NCBI GenBank assembly: GCA_028704635.1
Contig: JAQWFB010000005.1
Coordinates: forward strand, 26,223 to 90,222
Length of the DNA: 64,000 bases
Reading direction: 5' to 3'
Source of the DNA: Candidatus Shapirobacteria bacterium
Lineage (GTDB): Bacteria > Patescibacteriota > Microgenomatia > UBA12405
Shown here: positions 14,720 through 64,000 of the stretch, piece by piece
How positions within the stretch are numbered: position 1 is the stretch's first letter
Layout of the letters: every line of letters begins with the position of its first letter
Made by a program: the position numbers and the translations under genes
The notes under the pieces: generated by a model
Told to the model about the DNA's origin: nothing
What the model saw: only the letters and a program-made list of their open reading frames with translations
Databases searched by the model: none

Positions 14720-14845
14720 AATTCTATAAAATTTACTAATAAAAAAAGATTTTAAAATAGATTTAATTTTTTTATTTTTATGCTACAATATCCTATAAAA
14801 GTAAAAGCACTTTTAAAAACAAAAGGAAGATGGGGGTTTTAAAAA

Positions 14846-15076
14846 ATGGCCAGCAATGAAAAAAAACTGTTGGGAGAAGAAAAACTCGGCAAAGGTGGTA
14901 GGATTTCTCAAGCACTAAAACCCAAGAAAAAGAAAAGATTTCTTACTCTTGAGGAAATTCACCGAGAAACAAACCTACCTCTAGAAACAGTTGAAAACTA
15001 TGTTTTAAAAGAGCATCCCAATAATTTCATTAAAAAAGTTGTTGGTAATGAAACAAAGTACACTTTAAAAGACTAG
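14846..15076 (+). CDS. Small Lys-rich protein (76 aa) with a possible helix-turn-helix
   Basis: G-rich SD-like element 9 nt upstream; ..LTLEEIHRETNLPLETVENYV.. resembles an HTH; divergent from the wbp-like operon. Confidence 0.4.
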   Translation: MASNEKKLLGEEKLGKGGRISQALKPKKKKRFLTLEEIHRETNLPLETVENYVLKEHPNNFIKKVVGNETKYTLKD

Positions 15077-15104
15077 CCAATAAATAAAAATATCCCTTTT
15101 AATC

Positions 15105-15159
15105 GCCGTCAGGTTTATGTAAACTCATTTGTTTATATATTCCTGCCGGCCTTTTTTTT
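15105..15159 (+). terminator. Candidate intrinsic terminator (GC stem gccgtcagg/cctgccggc with an AT inner stem, then T8)
   Basis: Seen directly; lies 30 nt downstream of the 76-aa ORF. Confidence 0.35.
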
Positions 15160-15212
15160 GTTAAATAAGTCTAAATTTGAACTGAAAGGCCAAATTTTGT
15201 CTATTTATCAAA

Positions 15213-15228
15213 CTCCGATTTATCGGAG
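15213..15228. promoter_or_regulatory. 16-bp palindrome CTCCGAT-TT-ATCGGAG upstream of 15266 gene; candidate operator
   Basis: Perfect 7-bp inverted arms; TATAAT at 15252-15257 only ~8 nt before the ATG, suggesting a leaderless or short-leader mRNA. Confidence 0.3.
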
Positions 15229-15265
15229 TATACTAGCTTTCAATATTTTTATACTATAATCACCT

Positions 15266-20252: not shown

Positions 20253-20283
20253 ATTATTTTAAATTTAGAGTATAATTTTTTTA

Positions 20284-20300
20284 TCAACTAATTTAGTTGA
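20284..20300. promoter_or_regulatory. 17-bp perfect dyad TCAACTA-ATT-TAGTTGA just after pgk; candidate protein-binding site
   Basis: Seen directly; overlaps a TTGACA hexamer at 20297-20302. Confidence 0.3.
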
Positions 20301-20555
20301 CAAGTTCCTTAAATTTAAAAGAAAGTGAGGTTGTTTAAAAATGTTAAAACTTCTGATAGAAGATAATCTTCACACAGATCATTTTAATGATGAAAGGAGA
20401 TGATCCAATATCTACACACATCAAATAATGATGGTGTTAATCAAGAAGGGAAGCGATAAAACAATTTTTAAAACAAACCTCTCTCATTTTTTACCAAAAA
20501 TCAAACTCAAGTTTTAAAAAGCAACTTGAAAGTTGAATATCGGTATTTTTTTATA

Positions 20556-20609
20556 GGGCCTGGCTCAGTTTTTTGCATTATGCAAATATTACTGATCTAG
20601 GCCTTTTTT
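20556..20609 (+). terminator. Structured element E1: stem GGGCCTGGCTCAG/CTGATCTAGGCC around the palindrome TTTGCAT-TA-ATGCAAA, then T6
   Basis: Seen directly; looks like an intrinsic terminator in + orientation ~300 nt beyond the pgk stop. Confidence 0.4.
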
Positions 20610-21053
20610 GTTACTTGTTTTTATTTTAATAATATTTTATTATATAAACATATTCAGCCAGTCTGAAATAGATTTTTTTAAAAGCAAAAAAATCTGCACA
20701 TGTACAATCAGTTCTTTATTTAATTTGAAAGGAGGTATCTATTTGGTGGTAATAATATCGTCAAGTCCTTTCTTTTCAAGCCACATCAACCAAAAAGAAA
20801 TTATTCCTGGTATCCGTGGACCCACTTCATAATTTAATTTTTAGTTGTTAGTATTTTGACAATGGGAGGTGTATTGTTTGAGAGTAGTAATGATTAATAT
20901 CCTTACCATTAAAGCAGCAGGCGGTCTTACCCTGAAATAATTGGAATGCGGCCGGTACCAATACCGAGGAAATTATTAAACAATTAAATTTCATTTACAT
21001 TCTTTTCTTTTCAAAAAAAACATACCAATAAAGAACAAAGTTGTTTCACTACC

Positions 21054-21107
21054 GAGCCTGGCTCAGTTTTTTTTTGCATTTTATGCAAACAAGACTGATT
21101 CAGGCTC
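21054..21107. terminator. Structured element E2, a paralogue of E1: GAGCCTGGCTCAG...TTTGCAT-TTT-ATGCAAA...CTGATTCAGGCTC; possible bidirectional terminator
   Basis: 3' arm overlaps the stop codon of the minus-strand flippase; followed by a T-rich tract on the + strand. Confidence 0.35.
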
Positions 21108-25992: not shown

Positions 25993-26965
25993 TTTTTCTA
26001 TCATCATTCCGAACTATAATGGTGCTTCCTTCTTGAAGGACTGTCTTAATTCCCTAAAACAAGCCATAAATAATTGTCCTGGTTCTGAATTCGAAATAAT
26101 TCTAGTCGACAACAACTCAAAAGATAATAGTCTTGAAATTTTTGAAACCATAATTCCAAAAAATTTTAACTATCGAATATTATTAAACTCAAAAAATTAC
26201 GGATTCGCCGGTGCTGTTAACCAAGGAATTGAAAAAGCCAAACATAAATATGTCGTCTTACTAAATAATGACCTCACCATGGAACCAAAGTGGTTTCAGT
26301 TAATTTCTAAAACCATTAAAGAAAATAAAAATCCAAAAATCGTCACATTTTTTGGCACCGTCCTTACCAAAGATGGAACCAAATTTGAATCCCAAGGTCT
26401 AAAATTTTTCTATTCCGGCAAATGCCAAAATATTTCCAATGGAAAAAAATTTAATAAATCTACGACCTACGACCTACCGTCTACCCAACTAGCCTGGGGT
26501 GCGTCTGCTGCTTTTGTTGTCTACAATAAAAAAATGTTAAAACAAATTGGTCTTTTTGATGAAAATTTTTTCGCCTACGAAGAAGATGTTGATTTAGCTC
26601 TTCGTCTTCATAACTTAAATTATCAAACCCTTTATATTCCTCAAGCTATTTCTTATCACCTCGGTGGTGGCACTAGTAATAAAATGGGTATTTTTAGGTA
26701 TAAAATGGATGCCAAAAATTGGATTTATATTATCATCAAAAATTTTTCCAAAAAAGAAATAATTAAAAATTTTCCTCAAATCATCGAAGAACGTCTTAGA
26801 AATTTATCCGGACTAATAAAACAAATTATTCGTCTTTATAAAATAAAATCAATTTATTTTTTGCCTTTGATTTTATTTTCCACCTACGGAGAAGTTCTTG
26901 TAAATCTTCCAAAAATGTTTAAAAAACGAAAAATAATTCAAAAACTTGATAAACTAACTCAATGA
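25985..26965 (+). CDS. Glycosyltransferase family 2 (GT-A)
   Basis: N-terminal FSIIIPNYNGASFLKDCLNSL.. and DxD-type motifs. Confidence 0.8.
   Translation: MINFSIIIPNYNGASFLKDCLNSLKQAINNCPGSEFEIILVDNNSKDNSLEIFETIIPKNFNYRILLNSKNYGFAGAVNQGIEKAKHKYVVLLNNDLTMEPKWFQLISKTIKENKNPKIVTFFGTVLTKDGTKFESQGLKFFYSGKCQNISNGKKFNKSTTYDLPSTQLAWGASAAFVVYNKKMLKQIGLFDENFFAYEEDVDLALRLHNLNYQTLYIPQAISYHLGGGTSNKMGIFRYKMDAKNWIYIIIKNFSKKEIIKNFPQIIEERLRNLSGLIKQIIRLYKIKSIYFLPLILFSTYGEVLVNLPKMFKKRKIIQKLDKLTQ
26460..26487. repeat. Heptamer array CTACGAC-CTACGAC-CTACCGT-CTACCCA inside GT2 ORF, with the same AAAT 5' flank as at 24996
   Basis: 22 nt identical to the 24991-25016 copy (AAATCTACGACCTACGACCTAC). Confidence 0.75.
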
Positions 26966-58015: not shown

Positions 58016-59249
58016 TGTAATCGACATTGGCACTTCAAAAGTTACCACACTAGTTGGGCAGTATTTAGATGCTGATGATAAATTTAACATCATTGCCGTT
58101 TCCTCAATTCCATCTCTTGGTTTTCGAAAAGGCCAAATAATTAACTTAGAACAAGCTTCTCAAACCATCACTCAAAGCATCGAATCTGCCGAAAGAATGG
58201 CTGGTTTTCAAATAAACAGTGCCAATATTTCTATTTCTGCTCCTCATATTGAATCAATTAATTCTCATGGTGTTGTTGCCATCAGTAATCCAAATGGTGA
58301 AATAGATATTAACGATATCACTCGTGTAACCGAAGCCGCCAAAGCTATTTCTTTGCCAAGTGGTAAAGAAATAATTCATATTATCCAAAGAAAATTTACT
58401 GTCGACGGCCAAGAAGGTGTCATTGACCCAATTGGAATGAACGGCATCCGACTCGAAGTTGAAGCTCATTTAATTTTAGCCTCTAGCCCGGCTCTTAAAA
58501 ATCTAAAAAAATGTCTTGAAGATATTGGTATTAAAGTCGAATCTTTAACTTATGCTGGTCTCAGCACAGCTACTGCTGCTCTAACCGACACTGAAAAAGA
58601 ACTCGGCGTTGCTCTGGTTGATATTGGTGGTAGTATTACCAATATTACTATTTTTATCGAAGGTTCCCCAGTATTTTCATCAGTCATTCCCATTGGTGCC
58701 AACAATGTTACTAATGACCTTGCTATTGGTCTTCGATTTTCCATTGAAGACGCTGAAAAAATAAAATTAAAATTAGCCAAATTGTTCGAAAACAAAAAAT
58801 TTGAAGATGAAGTTGAATTGTCCCATTTTGACATCCATTCCGAAGACAAGAAAAAAATTTCTCTCCAGACTGCCATTAATGGCATAATTAAACCTCGACT
58901 TGAAGAAATTTTTTGTTTAATTTATTCACAAATTGAAACCAGTGGTTTTCATCAATCAATTCCTGCCGGAATTGTTTTAACTGGTGGCGGCGCCATGACT
59001 GTTAATGCTAAAGAAATTTGCAACCGAACTATTCCTCTTCCACTAAGAATTGCCAATCCACCAAAAGTAGGTGGTATAGTTGATGATATTATGAATCCAG
59101 CTTATACTAGCACTATTGGTCTTTTGCTTTACAATAAAAATGTCAAAAAAGGCAGTGGTTCAAATACTAAAGGTATTAAAGCCCCCAAAATTTCCATGAG
59201 TGGATTTTTTGATAAGATCAAAAAAATACTAGAACCACTTTTACCCTAA
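57993..59249 (+). CDS. ftsA: Cell division protein FtsA
   Basis: Actin-fold motifs ..[14 protein letters not shown].., ..[11 protein letters not shown].., ..VLTGGGA.. Confidence 0.85.
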
Positions 59250-59251
59250 AT

Positions 59252-60430
59252 ATGGGATTAATTAAAACTCTTACTGGACAATTTGCCAAAATAAAAGTCA
59301 TCGGAGTCGGTGGCGGTGGTAATAATGCCATTAATTCAATGATTACCGAAGATGCCATCAAAGGTGTCGACTTCATCGCCGTTAATACTGATTCTCAAGC
59401 CCTCTTAAATTCTCTTGCTTCAATCAAAATCCAAATTGGTGAAAAATTAACCAAAGGTCTTGGTGCTGGAGGTAATCCCCAAATGGGACAAAAAGCCGCC
59501 GAAGAATCAAAAGAAAGAATCAAAGAAGTTTTACAAGGCACCGATATGGTTTTTGTCACTGGTGGTATGGGTGGCGGCACATGCACTGGAGCCGCTCCAA
59601 TTATTGCCCAAATCGCCAAAAAAGAATTAGGAATTTTAACTATTGGTGTTGTTACTAAACCATTTTTGTTTGAAGGCACTCGTCGTATGACCAATGCCGA
59701 AGAAGGAATTTCTCAATTAAGAGAAAATGTTGACACTTTAATTGTTATTCCCAATCAAAAAGTCATGGAAGTTGTCAACAATAAGGCAACACTTTTAGAA
59801 GCCTTTAAAATTGCTGATTCTGTTTTAAGCAAAGGAACTAAAGCCATCGCTGATTTAATCACTGTTCCTGGATTAATTAATCTAGATTTTGCCGATATTA
59901 AGGCTGTTATGAGTAATGCCGGCTCTGCTCTTATGGGAACAGGTGAAGCCGAAGGAGAAAATAAAATCCAAAAAGCCGTTGAAGACGCCATTGATTCTCC
60001 ATTAGTTGAAGTTAATATTGAAGGTGCTAGAGGAGTTTTGATTAATGTTACTGGCGGACCCGATATCACCATGTCTGAAATTGAAGAAGCCGCTAGAAAT
60101 ATTACTGAACGAACCGCTCCAGACGCCAATATTATTTTTGGAGCTACCATCGACAAAGAACTCAAAGGCAAAGTTAAGATTTCTGTTATCGCGACTGGGT
60201 TTGACACTAGTCGGGCTAATCTTTATCAGCATATTAAAAAACCACAACCAACTCTAATAAATTTACCAAATCAACCCAAACCCCAAACACAGGAAAATAA
60301 AAATACATTAGAAGAATCAAATCTTAGTGATAATCGAATAAAAGAATTCTTAAATACTAAAGAAGTTCCCACTGGCATCGATATCATCGACGAATACGAT
60401 ATCCCTGCTTTCCTGAGAAAAAATAAATAA
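59252..60430 (+). CDS. ftsZ: Cell division GTPase FtsZ
   Basis: ..[17 protein letters not shown].. and ..[12 protein letters not shown].. tubulin signature. Confidence 0.9.
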
Positions 60431-60510
60431 AAAACGGCCAAAAACTAAAAACAAATATACCTTTCGGTATCAAATGTTTCAGCTTTCAGCCGTCATTTTT
60501 ATGGATGCTC
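60431..60510. repeat. Copy 1 of an ~80-bp conserved element (AAAAACGGCCAAAAACTAAAAACAAATA..ACCTTTCGGTAT..TTTCAGC.TTCAGCC..ATTTTTAT)
   Basis: About 88% identical to the copy at 60838-60918; contains the hairpin ATACC-TTTC-GGTAT; abuts the ftsZ stop and the stop of the small gene at 60510. Confidence 0.6.
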
Positions 60511-60683
60511 TAGAGGTTAAATGTCTTTTTGATCAGCCTCCAAGTAAAAACAAAAATAACAAACAAACATACAAGAAAAATAAATAAATGTTTGTCTGCC
60601 AAAATTTCCAAGGCTCCACCAATACCAAGTAATATACCTAAAACCAACACTATTAATACAAAATTACTCCAAAAACTTTTCAT
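60510..60683 (-). CDS. Small hydrophobic protein (57 aa from the ATG; the ORF track uses a GTG 3 codons upstream)
   Basis: GAAAGGAAAG SD 8 nt before the ATG; one or two TM helices. Confidence 0.4.
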   Translation of the reverse strand: MKSFWSNFVLIVLVLGILLGIGGALEILADKHLFIFLVCLFVIFVFTWRLIKKTFNL

Positions 60684-60837
60684 TAAATACACTTTCCTTT
60701 CACATCCAATTTTTTATGTACTTCTTTTACAGAAGAACTCAAAAGCTTAATTTCGAGTTATGTAAAAGATTGTATTAGTTTAATAACTTTCGTTATAAAA
60801 CTAACCTATAATATCACACAAGTATTAATTTGTCAAG

Positions 60838-60918
60838 AAAAACGGCCAAAAACTAAAAACAAATAACACCTTTCGGTATTAAAGTTTCAGCCTTCAGCCA
60901 TTATTTTTATAGATACTT
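60838..60918. repeat. Copy 2 of the ~80-bp conserved element
   Basis: Direct repeat of the 60431-60510 element; overlaps the 3' end of the small gene at 60907..61023. Confidence 0.6.
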
Positions 60919-61023
60919 GAAAATTGGATTATGGCCTATATGTAAAACATAAGCAGCAATTAATCCCGCTATCAAAGCCATTGCTAAAACACCAATTATC
61001 AAAACTTTTTTATCCTTTTCCAT
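60907..61023 (-). CDS. Small single-TM peptide (38 aa, MEKDKKVLIIGVLAMALIAGLIAAYVLHIGHNPIFKYL)
   Basis: Strong SD AAAGGAGTG 8 nt upstream of the ATG; not in the ORF track because it is under 60 aa. Confidence 0.45.
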   Translation of the reverse strand: MEKDKKVLIIGVLAMALIAGLIAAYVLHIGHNPIFKYL

Positions 61024-61186
61024 TCCCAAACACTCCTTTCTGTTTTCAAACACCAAAATTTCAAGTATCACTTTTTGTGTAACAATTTAGAAGCTTTTTT
61101 CCAAATTACAAAAACACGGTCTCATCGTATCACTTCTTATATTCTAAATCAACATATTAGCTTCAACTATAGTGTAAAATACTACT

Positions 61187-64000
61187 ATGTCTAAATTTAA
61201 AAATATTCCCAGCAATATCAGTTTTCCCGCCATGGAAGAAGAAATCATTTCTTTTTGGAAAGAAAACAAAATTTTTGAAAAATCAGTTGACCAAAGATCC
61301 AACGACAATGCCTACACTTTTTACGATGGCCCTCCATTTATAACCGGAATGCCCCATCATGGTCATTTATTGTCCAGTATTGCCAAAGATATTATTCCTC
61401 GATACCAAACCATGAAAAGTAAAAAAGTTAAACGAGTTTGGGGTTGGGATTGTCATGGCCTTCCTGCCGAAAATAAGGTTGAAGAAAGACTTGGTTTAAA
61501 ATCAAAAAAAGATATTGAACAAATTGGTATCCGTCGATATATTGATGAATGTTATTCTTATGTTCAAAATGTTTCTCAAGAATGGGAATGGTATATCGAC
61601 CATGTTGGTCGTTGGGTAGATTTTAAAAATGCCTATAAAACCATGGATTTAAACTACATGGAAACCGTTATGTGGGTTTTTTCCGAGCTATATAAAAAGG
61701 GATTAATTTATAAAGGTCGCCGAATTTCTTTGTATTGTCCTCGTTGTTCCACTCCGCTTTCAAATTTCGAAATCGCCATGGATAATTCCTATAAAGATGT
61801 CGAAGATCCAGCCATTTCTATTAAATTTAAGTTAAAAGATCGTGACGCTTATATTTTAGCTTGGACCACCACTCCTTGGACTCTTCCTGGGAATTTAGCC
61901 TTAGCTGTTAATAAAAACGAAACTTATGTTGAAGTTTTAGTCAATCAAGAAAATATAATTTTAGCCAAAGATAGGGTTGAATCTGTTTTAATTAATAAAG
62001 AATATAAAATAATTAAAGAATTTAAAGGTCAAGAATTAATTGGCCTTTCTTACCAACCCCTTTACAGCTTTTTTACTGAAACTCTTCCCGACTATAAAAT
62101 ATATCATGCCGATTTTGTTTCTATGACCGACGGTACTGGTATCGTTCATATTGCCCCTGGTTTTGGCGAAGATGATTCAGCCCTAGGTAAAGAAAATAAT
62201 TTATCTGTCATTGATCATGTTGATGACGAAGGAAAAATAATCGAACAAGTCACTCCTTTTGCTGGCCTTTTTGTTAAAAAAGCCGATCCATTAGTTATTG
62301 AAGATTTAAAAAATAGGAACCTGCTTTTCAAAGAAGAAAAAATCAAACACAGCTATCCTTTTTGTTATCGCTGTGGCACTCCATTAATTTATAAATCTCA
62401 AACTGCTTGGTATCTTAATGTTCAATCTATAAAAGATGGCATGAAAACCACCAATCAAAAAATAAATTGGATTCCAGAACATATTAAAAATGGTCGCTTT
62501 GGACAAGGAATTGAAACTGCTCCTGATTGGTGCCTTTCTCGATCTCGATATTGGGCCTCTCCAATTCCTGTTTGGGAATGTGATTGTGGAGAAAAATATG
62601 TTCCTAGTTCCATTGCTGATTTAGAAGCTAAATCTGGTCAAAAAGTAACCAATCTTCATAAACCAGAAATTGATGAAATTTTTATTAAATGTGATAAATG
62701 TGGAAAAGAAGTTCATCGGGTCACTGAAGTTTTAGATTGTTGGTTTGAATCTGGCGCCATGCCTTATGCTGAACGTCATTATCCATTTGATAATAAAGAT
62801 CAGTTAGAAAAAGAATTTCCCGCCGACTATATAGTTGAATATATTGGTCAAACTCGAGGTTGGTTTTACACCCTTCATGTTTTGTCTAATGCTTTATTTA
62901 AATCTGAATCGTTTAAAAATTGTGTTGTTACTGGCACTATTATGGGTACCGATGGTCGCAAAATGAGCAAACTGTTCAAAAACTATCCCGATCCAAAAAT
63001 GGTTCTTCAAAAATATGGCGGCGAAGCCATGCGTTTATATTTAATGGGCGGTGTCATTATGGTTGGTGAAAATATGAATATGAATGAAAAAGAAATAGAA
63101 GACAAAGTTAAATTTGTTCTTTTACCTCTTTGGAATTGTTTTAAATATCTCACCACTTATGCTCAAATGCACAATTGGACTCCAAACTTAAATTCAATTA
63201 ACAATTCTACTAATATTCTTGATCAATGGATTGTCACTAGAACTGATCAATTAACTCAAGAATTTGCCCAAGAATTGGATAAATATATTATTCCCAATGC
63301 TGTTAAATTAATAACTCCCTATATCGAAGATTTATCTCGTTGGTATATTCGTCAATCACGAGATCGATTTGTTAATGGCGATAAAGAAGCTCTTCAAACT
63401 CTATGGCAAGTTCTTATCCAATTTACCAAAACCGCAGCTCCATTAATTCCATTCATCACTGAATATTTTTACCAAAATTTGGTTTTACCCTTTGATTCCA
63501 AAGCCTCAGAATCTGTTCATCTAGAACTTTATCCAGAAACAAAACCAATTGACCAACAATTATTAGATAATATGGTTTATGTTCGAGAAATTTGCGAGCA
63601 GGGAAATATGATCAGAAAAACTAGTAATCTAAATACTAGACAACCTCTCTCAAAAGCCACTATTAACAATTCTCAAAAAATAGATTTAAGTTCCGACTTA
63701 ATTGAAATTATTAAAAATGAATTAAATATTAAAGATGTCGAAATTATTTTAGGAAAAAATAATCTAACAGTTACTCTCGACACTAACATTACTCCAGAAT
63801 TAAAAGCTGAAGGTGATGCTCGAGATTTAATTCGCCAAATTCAAAGTCTTCGTAAAGAAAATCAGTTAAATCTTAAAGATAAAATTAAAATTTTTGCACC
63901 AACTTGGCCAGCTGATTTTGAAAAAGAAATTTTAACAAAAACACTAGGCGTTAGTATTGAAAAATCAGAAAATGTCACGATCTCTTTGGCTACCAACACT
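61187..64000 (+). CDS. ileS: Isoleucine--tRNA ligase, type 2 (eukaryote-like), 5' partial running off the window (938 codons)
   Basis: ..FYDGPPFITGMPHHGH.. HIGH region typical of type-2 IleRS; KMSKL at ~62960; frame open to the window end. Confidence 0.85.
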   Translation, partial: MSKFKNIPSNISFPAMEEEIISFWKENKIFEKSVDQRSNDNAYTFYDGPPFITGMPHHGHLLSSIAKDIIPRYQTMKSKKVKRVWGWDCHGLPAENKVEERLGLKSKKDIEQIGIRRYIDECYSYVQNVSQEWEWYIDHVGRWVDFKNAYKTMDLNYMETVMWVFSELYKKGLIYKGRRISLYCPRCSTPLSNFEIAMDNSYKDVEDPAISIKFKLKDRDAYILAWTTTPWTLPGNLALAVNKNETYVEVLVNQENIILAKDRVESVLINKEYKIIKEFKGQELIGLSYQPLYSFFTETLPDYKIYHADFVSMTDGTGIVHIAPGFGEDDSALGKENNLSVIDHVDDEGKIIEQVTPFAGLFVKKADPLVIEDLKNRNLLFKEEKIKHSYPFCYRCGTPLIYKSQTAWYLNVQSIKDGMKTTNQKINWIPEHIKNGRFGQGIETAPDWCLSRSRYWASPIPVWECDCGEKYVPSSIADLEAKSGQKVTNLHKPEIDEIFIKCDKCGKEVHRVTEVLDCWFESGAMPYAERHYPFDNKDQLEKEFPADYIVEYIGQTRGWFYTLHVLSNALFKSESFKNCVVTGTIMGTDGRKMSKLFKNYPDPKMVLQKYGGEAMRLYLMGGVIMVGENMNMNEKEIEDKVKFVLLPLWNCFKYLTTYAQMHNWTPNLNSINNSTNILDQWIVTRTDQLTQEFAQELDKYIIPNAVKLITPYIEDLSRWYIRQSRDRFVNGDKEALQTLWQVLIQFTKTAAPLIPFITEYFYQNLVLPFDSKASESVHLELYPETKPIDQQLLDNMVYVREICEQGNMIRKTSNLNTRQPLSKATINNSQKIDLSSDLIEIIKNELNIKDVEIILGKNNLTVTLDTNITPELKAEGDARDLIRQIQSLRKENQLNLKDKIKIFAPTWPADFEKEILTKTLGVSIEKSENVTISLATNT

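Follow-up and report, generated by a model that had tools for sequence, protein, structure and literature searches.

A repeated 3' element of tandem small-gene units between ileS and ftsZ of Candidatus Shapirobacteria, a probable terminator module of a lineage-specific cassette

Introduction

The question raised by the region between ftsZ and ileS in a genome of Candidatus Shapirobacteria (assembly GCA_028704635.1, contig JAQWFB010000005.1, forward-strand positions 26,223 to 90,222) is why two different small open reading frames (ORFs) on the minus strand should each end in nearly the same element of about 80 bp. A preliminary description of this stretch of 64,000 nucleotides, referred to below as the window (30% G+C), had regarded the ORFs and their repeated element as a possible type I toxin-antitoxin (TA) style or small RNA (sRNA)-associated module, in which the conserved part would be a cis-encoded antisense RNA or a terminator/untranslated region (UTR), or else as members of a genome-wide repeat family resembling repetitive extragenic palindromic (REP) sequences or miniature inverted-repeat transposable elements (MITE). 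The findings presented here indicate that the element is very probably the 3' module of a tandemly duplicated, lineage-specific small-membrane-protein cassette and that it comprises one strand of a helix that closes the mRNA, a spacer and an intrinsic terminator.

Both ORFs were confirmed on the minus strand after ftsZ, each with an ATG start codon behind a Shine-Dalgarno (SD) sequence. ORF1 (60510-60683, 57 amino acids, SD sequence GAAAGGAAAG at 60692-60701) belongs together with copy 1 of the element to what is termed unit B, and ORF2 (60907-61023, 38 amino acids, SD sequence AAAGGAGTG at 61031-61039) together with copy 2 to unit A. Coordinates of unit components refer to the minus strand of the window throughout.

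Results

The repeated element and its terminal hairpin

The intervals 60431-60510 and 60838-60918 were identical at 71 of 82 aligned columns (about 87%), in agreement with the earlier estimate of an 80-bp element of about 88% identity, and the 22-mer TTTTTAGTTTTTGGCCGTTTTT was found exactly twice as opposed to 0.02 expected occurrences. The resemblance between the copies is far beyond chance. When the entire window was scanned, filters off, with a covariance model of the hairpin element (model R1), copy 1 scored 91.4 bits and copy 2 scored 87.8 bits, both on the minus strand, while the next match scored 20 bits; on the plus strand, copy 1 scored 41 bits. Matches in the window to R1 and to a second covariance model, R2, built for the leader, were limited to the two units, and no further leader copies were found with R2 in the window or in related loci beyond the cassette units. 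Comparison of the whole window with Rfam 15 gave no match at gathering threshold, hence no known RNA families such as tRNAs or riboswitches were detected, and matches at E values of up to 10 for positions 60300-61300 were at chance level.

The hairpin ATACC-TTTC-GGTAT noted previously within the element was present, as an opposite-strand view of the tip of a structure, but is merely the tip of a stem of 24-25 bp. The AAAAACGGCCAAAAAC box, also noted previously, was likewise present and corresponds to the complement of the hairpin 3' arm plus U-tract. Thus, read on the minus strand, each window copy starts with ACGGC, ends with GCCGU, has an AUACC-GAAA-GGUAU tip and is directly followed by a U-tract. 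Copy 1 (60434-60493) has a 24-bp stem with 4 G-U pairs and copy 2 (60842-60901) a 25-bp stem with 7 G-U pairs, each with a GAAA tetraloop at the tip. The predicted fold was strand-specific, with free energies for the bare stem of -27.8 kcal/mol sense versus -14.1 kcal/mol antisense for copy 1 and -25.6 versus -6.6 kcal/mol for copy 2. Inclusion of short flanks gave -30.6 kcal/mol (z score -6.6) for the former and -28.7 kcal/mol (z score -5.2) for the latter. Strong folding on the mini-gene strand ahead of a U-tract, together with weak folding on the opposite strand, points to a Rho-independent (i.e., intrinsic) terminator that would act on the mini-gene strand.

For copy 1, the U-tract (60428-60433) contains in its complement the ftsZ stop codon (60428-60430), and for copy 2 it (60837-60841) abuts the -35 box of unit B; the sequence 3' of the hairpin is either the promoter of the next unit or convergent ftsZ. 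On the plus strand, the A-tract side of copy 1 reads GUCAUUUUUAU and the fold, of -17.3 kcal/mol (z score -3.5), is followed by CAUUUUUAU; copy 1 may therefore serve bidirectionally and also terminate convergent ftsZ transcription, to judge from these sequences. Other long bipartite hairpin-plus-U-tract structures were noted at gene ends in the window (approximately 15105-15160, 20555-20605 and 21054-21107), and long bipartite terminators are therefore taken to be the usual terminator style of this organism.

Related loci and the cassette

Degenerate hairpin-pattern scans, one of GTDB species-representative genomes and one of metagenomes, provided loci L002 to L006, one from a GTDB representative and the other four from metagenomes, and each was situated at the ileS-ftsZ position. 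For the gene that precedes the hairpin in L004, a search of 5.8 billion proteins gave no more than four clusters of homologs, and contigs of those clusters (L007 to L013) represented the ileS-ftsZ locus again. In eight related metagenomic loci, one or two tandem copies of the cassette were situated between ileS and ftsZ, and the order within a unit was promoter, leader of approximately 115 nt, SD sequence with a variable coding sequence (CDS), hairpin and U-tract. The CDS was of a long form (137-143 amino acids, ending in F(V/I)GHP-stop) in L003, L005, L009, L013 and unit B of L004, L007 and L010, and was 126 amino acids long in unit A of L007. Short forms were of the ORF1 type (57-59 amino acids) in unit B of the window and of L006, and of the ORF2 type (38-52 amino acids) in unit A of the window, L004, L006 and L010. 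L004 and the window had the same two-unit layout. Unit A of both L006 and L010 had lost the 5' arm of its hairpin by deletion, and the ORF there continued through the remnant.

The strand-specific fold was seen in all 12 copies from 9 genomes, those of the window included, with free energies between -25.6 and -34.8 kcal/mol on the gene strand and between -6.6 and -17.2 kcal/mol on the opposite strand. Stems had 22-26 predicted pairs, 4-7 of them G-U, with 93% of cells paired in the stem alignment, and the G-C-rich stem base ACGGC/GCCGU was followed by 4-9 U in all 12 copies. The distance from stop codon to hairpin was 9-21 nt in 11 units and 56 nt in unit A of L004. Two types of hairpin were distinguished, type I with a continuous stem and type II, in which an internal loop is present and the 3' arm contains GUGAGUARG; the 5' arm GACGGCUGAAAGCU was invariant in all 11 distinct copies, including those of type II in which it is partly unpaired. 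Between the window and L006, identity was 98% for the hairpin and 91% for promoter plus leader as opposed to 65% for four-fold degenerate sites of ftsZ (synonymous difference 0.43). The 60-nt hairpins of L003 and L006 were identical although 55% of ftsZ synonymous sites differed between these loci.

The type of unit and of hairpin was incongruent with ftsZ relatedness; thus, ftsZ of L006 and L010 was 93% identical while unit B genes and hairpin types of these loci differed. Since intragenomic copies share derived states and types are incongruent with ftsZ, gene conversion and exchange between lineages are both likely. The ileS-ftsZ locus has the appearance of a variable island that lineages have exchanged.

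Promoters and structured leaders

A promoter-like sequence for unit B (TTGACA, 17 nt, TG-n-TATTAT; an 11/12 match with an extended -10 box) was identified at 60808-60836, beginning directly past the U-tract of hairpin copy 2, and the same sequence was found in the same place in L006, L004 and L007. A putative weaker promoter of unit A (TTGATT, 17 nt, TG-a-TACGAT) was read from the sequence at 61124-61152; this site fell under the promoter-scan threshold and was conserved in L006 and L010. The consensus across loci was TTGAC(A/T)-17-TGATATTAT, i.e., TTGAC(A/T)-17-TGnTATTAT.

The structured leader of unit B (60684-60802, 116 bits with R2) includes helix H1 (60777-60802), with an AUAAC-GAAA-GUUAU core, and, as indicated by the leader alignment, a bipartite hairpin, H2 (60721-60770). 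The leader of unit A (61024-61118, 64 bits with R2) is a diverged paralog that lacks H1 and has a hairpin at 61083-61108 in the same alignment. Thus, the two leaders of the window were recognisably related but far less alike than their hairpins. An alignment of 13 distinct leaders, each of approximately 115 nt, indicated three helices with 24 pairs, in which 95% of cells were paired and compensatory changes on both sides were noted for 9 pairs. The observed result was matched in none of 500 column shuffles, and registers that had been slid gave 31-65% paired cells.

Pairing between leader and 3' end of the coding sequence

A second covarying structure was noted between the two ends of each unit. 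In unit B, UUGGAUGU (60702-60709), just upstream of the SD sequence, is complementary to GCAUCCAU (60501-60508) at the 5' edge of element copy 1. The latter strand is what remains, out of frame, of the long-form codons for G-H-P-stop; participation in the closing helix explains why copy 1 has conserved CATCCATAA although the frame is not kept there, the sequence being retained as RNA rather than as codons. In unit A, the whole-mRNA fold placed the 5' strand at 61053-61069 (61043-61056 in an alternative register) and the 3' strand, CCAAUUUUCAAGUAUC, at 60912-60927, where it covers the last codons of ORF2. The corresponding strands of long-form units were GGAUGUCC in the leader and GGACAUCC, which are the G-H-P codons, at the 3' end. 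Leader and 3' strands were CGGAUG and CAUCCG in L003, GGGUGUUC and GGACAUCC in unit B of L010 and UGAGUGUCUA and UAGACAUUUA in unit A of L004, while those of unit A of L007, UUUACUUUAGAA and UUCUAAAGUAAA, were wholly different in sequence yet perfectly complementary.

Across units, the cognate duplexes were 7-12 bp long, spanned up to about 430 nt and had free energies of -11 to -16 kcal/mol (z scores of -1.1 to -5.2). In a column test of 12 positions, 84% of cells were paired and two-sided changes were noted at 9 of the 12, whereas none of 2000 permutations of tails among leaders reached the observed value and slid registers gave 27-50%. Unconstrained folding of full-length mRNAs (280-630 nt) returned the closing helix at probabilities of 0.89-0.99 in 10 of 12 units. 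For the whole predicted ORF1 mRNA, the helix was part of the minimum free energy (MFE) structure with a pairing probability of 0.97, and the MFE structure of unit A of the window contained it in a shifted register, GAUACUUGAAA/UUUCAAGUAUC. A test for sequestration of the SD sequence by the closing helix gave no consistent effect on predicted SD accessibility. The helix may control mRNA stability or translation.

Coding sequences and their evolution

The gene order at this locus is murG, a small gene in the position of ftsQ, ftsA, ftsZ (plus strand, ending at 60430), the two minus-strand mini-ORFs and ileS (plus strand, starting at 61187), with ileS, ftsW, ftsA and ftsZ as neighbours. Positions 58848-63184 of the window are identical to a contig of the Candidatus Shapirobacteria metagenome-assembled genome GCA_028681165.1, in the public annotation of which ORF2 is called, as 54 amino acids from a GTG at 61071, and ORF1 is not. 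An alternative GTG start three codons upstream would lengthen ORF1 to 60 amino acids. The description of both products as single-helix peptides was correct for ORF2, which has one hydrophobic stretch and thus one transmembrane (TM) helix, but not for ORF1, which has two hydrophobic helices.

No mutual similarity was detected between the ORF1 and ORF2 peptides. A search of 5.8 billion proteins returned no homolog of ORF1 and only ORF2 itself for ORF2, and scans of the peptides and long-form proteins against Pfam, NCBIfam and PADLOC gave nothing at curated cut-off or significance; most of the proteins scanned matched no family, and the rest gave weak matches to unrelated non-toxin families (E values of 0.027 or worse, bit scores far below cut-offs). 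The earlier statement that the element is better conserved than the peptides was borne out. Within the related loci, the ORF1 homolog of L006 (59 amino acids) was 42% identical in amino acid sequence with frame and length retained, and ORF2 homologs of L004, L006 and L010 (41-52 amino acids) had the first 33 or so residues in common. A profile search of 1.84 billion representatives with the long-form family identified 17 relatives only, indicating a tiny family and offering no functional clue. The AlphaFold model of the long-form protein (predicted local distance difference test score 78) consisted of an N-terminal TM helix and a beta-rich domain, and no significant match to this model was found in the PDB.

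Ratios of nonsynonymous to synonymous substitution (dN/dS, Nei-Gojobori method) were 0.03-0.08 for ftsZ, 0.18-0.5 for the long-form gene and 0.4-0.6 for the first 33 codons of the ORF2 type (about 1.0 for the closest pair, L006 and L010). The value for ORF1, window versus L006, was 1.38, and despite this value the ORF1 type has kept its frame, its length (57 versus 59 amino acids) and two hydrophobic helices. Such retention would be unlikely for untranslated A+T-rich DNA. The mini-ORFs are plausibly shortened derivatives of the long gene, in view of their position and weak N-terminal similarity to it. A CAG-to-TAG reading (GWQK to GW-stop) in unit A of L004 is anecdotal.

Genes adjoining the units in related loci

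In L004 (1416-1810, ORF at 1558-1719), a 53-amino-acid ORF with two TM segments was found on the ftsZ side of unit B, in convergent orientation to it. This gene is equipped with a strong promoter (TTGACG-17-TGnTAAAAT) and a hairpin terminator of its own, the latter back-to-back with that of unit B; the same convergent gene is also present between unit B and ftsZ in L007 and is absent from the window. In L005 (1810-2340), a TTGACA promoter and a Phd/YefM-ParE type II TA pair come after the hairpin (PhdYeFM_antitox, E value 7e-7; ParE_toxin, E value 2e-9).

Discussion

The most probable interpretation of the repeated element, and one in which we have considerable confidence, is that it constitutes the 3' module of the duplicated cassette. 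Each unit would be a self-contained mRNA scaffold under its own sigma-70-type promoter, in which a helix formed by the leader segment ahead of the SD sequence and the final CDS codons would close the mRNA into a loop, to be followed by an A-rich spacer and then by the G-U-rich hairpin of 22-26 predicted pairs with its U-tract. The hosts would be a small set of Microgenomates (Shapirobacteria/Woesebacteria-like) genomes. Copies would be alike as a result of duplication of whole units, selection and some gene conversion having preserved the RNA modules around a fast-changing CDS. Elsewhere the scaffold bears a membrane-anchored protein of 137-143 amino acids and, in the window, only short hydrophobic ORFs in both copies. 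The preliminary description was correct in regarding the element as a terminator/UTR module, as a strand-specific hairpin with U-tract ends each unit and the 5' edge of the element is the covarying strand of the closing helix.

Several findings weigh against this interpretation or parts of it. Promoter use, RNA 3' ends and termination are predictions from sequence. The hairpin stem showed no two-sided compensatory changes, only one-sided G-U/A-U/G-C changes, and its conservation beyond the needs of a terminator suggests either an extra function or recent exchange. For the closing helix, the register used in the column test was set by hand, the helix was absent from the ensemble of two units (unit A of the window, in the canonical register, and unit B of L006), and the predicted unpaired probability of SD plus AUG in full-length mRNA (0.11-0.54) did not change consistently when the tail was removed. 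Similarity of the mini-ORFs to the long gene was limited to the N-terminal TM segment (hhalign P values of 0.003-0.008), and their origin as deletion derivatives was not significant at the DNA level (z scores of 3 or less).

The cassette shares features with several known systems and differs from each in others. Like intrinsic terminators, each unit has at its 3' end a G-C-rich stem base followed by a U-tract, and the A-tract on the opposite side of copy 1 is a feature of bidirectional terminators between convergent genes. Unlike the usual intrinsic terminator, the cassette stem is unusually long (24-25 pairs in the window), is nearly invariant between genomes in which about half of the ftsZ synonymous sites differ and is coupled to a closing helix a few nucleotides upstream. 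Type I toxin mRNAs such as hok, aapA1 and others in T1TAdb (PMC8594479, PMC6733600) resemble the cassette in being short mRNAs that encode a small hydrophobic peptide and in having stem-loops at the 5' end as well as a terminator stem-loop, with the coding region closed by a long-distance 5'-3' interaction. The cassette differs from them in that neither an antisense RNA gene nor homology to a known toxin was detected, in that orthologous cassette scaffolds encode proteins of 126-143 amino acids and in that the closing helix is situated directly 5' of the SD sequence, with no predicted occlusion. The 3'-UTR of icaR mRNA reportedly pairs with the SD region, thereby blocking translation and creating an RNase III site. 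Pairing of the icaR 5'-UTR and 3'-UTR in Staphylococcus aureus (PMC3868564) is similarly an intramolecular pairing of the two ends of a bacterial mRNA outside a TA context. The cassette differs in that its 3' strand is formed by the last CDS codons, its 5' strand is beside and not on the SD sequence and the helix has only 7-12 bp.

The possibility that the element is a dispersed REP/MITE-like repeat, or a recombination site of the attC kind marking cassettes of mobile genes, deserves attention in view of the conserved imperfect inverted repeat 3' of small ORFs that are unrelated to each other and arrayed in tandem on one strand, and in view of the incongruence of unit type with ftsZ relatedness, which suggests exchange. 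In chromosomal integron arrays (attC/VCR), a conserved imperfect palindrome likewise follows each of several unrelated small ORFs in same-strand tandem. Against this, a structure-aware search with filters off found two copies only in 64 kb, the sole matching GTDB representative had one syntenic copy and the metagenome matches were at the same locus; a genome-wide repeat family is thus refuted. Moreover, the array comprises only one or two units, each with its own promoter and leader, no integrase was found among called genes around the locus, the arms GGCUGAAAGCUGAAAC and GUUUUUAGUUUUUGGCC, as read from the sequence, are without the RYYYAAC/GTTRRRY core sites of attC, and dependence on G-U pairs means that the fold works as one-strand RNA and not as single-stranded DNA. 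We therefore regard a repeat or recombination site as extremely improbable. A scan of viral contigs for the hairpin gave a single match, which was inside a phage CDS and was attributed to chance.

Membership in a type I TA system, i.e., a membrane-toxin mRNA kept inert by the closing helix with an antisense or trans-acting RNA that escaped notice as antitoxin, has several features in its favour, since the window ORFs are small and hydrophobic and the 5' stem-loops, terminator stem-loop and long-distance 5'-3' interaction are all present, these three features being the determinants by which type I toxin mRNAs are annotated (PMC8594479). In addition, ORF1 evolves fast yet keeps frame and hydrophobicity, as do many type I toxins, and since the stop codon of ftsZ is directly adjacent to the hairpin, transcripts of ftsZ must extend into it; ftsZ read-through, antisense to the 3' end of unit B, would be a low-probability candidate for the antitoxin. 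The cis-encoded antisense RNA proposed earlier did not materialize, as no promoter-like site was found on the opposite strand inside either unit; a sequence scan of the units of the window and of L006 revealed no sigma-70-like promoter in that orientation, although weak or atypical promoters could escape such a scan. The convergent transcript of L004 and L007 ends at its own terminator and L005 has a type II TA pair after the hairpin where other loci have ftsZ, and overlap with ftsZ is therefore not conserved. Furthermore, the same scaffold carries proteins of 126-143 amino acids with an extracytoplasmic domain under purifying selection; in six other loci, the positional orthologs of the mini-ORFs are membrane-anchored and 137-143 amino acids long. 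No toxin family was matched in Pfam, NCBIfam or PADLOC, and predicted SD accessibility was not consistently altered by the closing helix. Thus, of the earlier TA proposal, the likeness in mRNA architecture and the terminator/UTR part stand, while neither an antisense partner nor a toxin family was found; nothing found shows a TA pair, membership in type I TA systems is not supported, and we consider it improbable. Slightly less improbable, though still unlikely, is that the hairpin is, or is also, a functional RNA, either a stable sRNA derived from the 3' end or a protein-binding element recognised by sequence, with termination as a partial role. The identical hairpins of L003 and L006, the invariant 5' arm in a stem that shows no two-sided changes and survival of the scaffold where the CDS has shrunk are in accord with such a role. 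No match in Rfam and no candidate target or partner were identified, however; unit A of L006 and of L010 has kept its ORF despite decay of the hairpin, and gene conversion or recent exchange could account for its conservation.

With the 3' module of a duplicated cassette as the preferred interpretation, the repeated element by itself is ordinary, being a duplicated terminator. The less ordinary parts are the closed-loop mRNA scaffold, which is supported by covariation, and the near-invariant hairpin; a bacterial mRNA of which the noncoding scaffold outlasts the protein in conservation is less common. To our knowledge, the closed mRNAs on record are mostly those of type I toxins, along with those of a few regulators, and next to nothing has been reported on post-transcriptional control in the Candidate Phyla Radiation (CPR), from which the cassette provides a candidate closed mRNA. 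As a tentative proposal, which we consider possible rather than probable, the ileS-ftsZ units may represent an undescribed RNA scaffold, made up of the three-helix leader, the closing helix and the near-invariant G-U-rich hairpin, that acts at the RNA level, either as a post-transcriptional gate as in type I toxin mRNAs or as a dual-function RNA. Such a function, if true, would explain why the scaffold is intact while its coding cargo has been swapped or has shrunk to mini-ORFs, and the locus would be a variable one traded among related CPR lineages beside the cell-division gene ftsZ. Duplication of a cassette with a fast-changing CDS can mimic TA or sRNA modules, which calls for caution where such modules are called from sequence only.

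Other features of the window

The ileS start codon was noted within a small conserved hairpin at 61166-61189 (AUAGUG-UAAAAUA-CUACUAUG), in which the stem of L003 has a G-U to G-C change; this hairpin may be a translational operator of ileS. A gap of 546 bp (14720-15265) contains an uncalled small basic ORF of about 75 amino acids, read directly from the sequence, followed by a long hairpin with a U8 tract (approximately 15105-15160, -24 kcal/mol). A further gap of 847 bp (20253-21099) contains only small ORFs with good SD sequences, and a pair of repeated long hairpins with U-tracts (GCCUGGCUCAGUUUUUU...GCAAA...) was found at 20555-20605 and 21054-21107 (-25.6 and -28.6 kcal/mol, respectively), 498 bp apart. 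This region may be another duplicated small-gene cassette.

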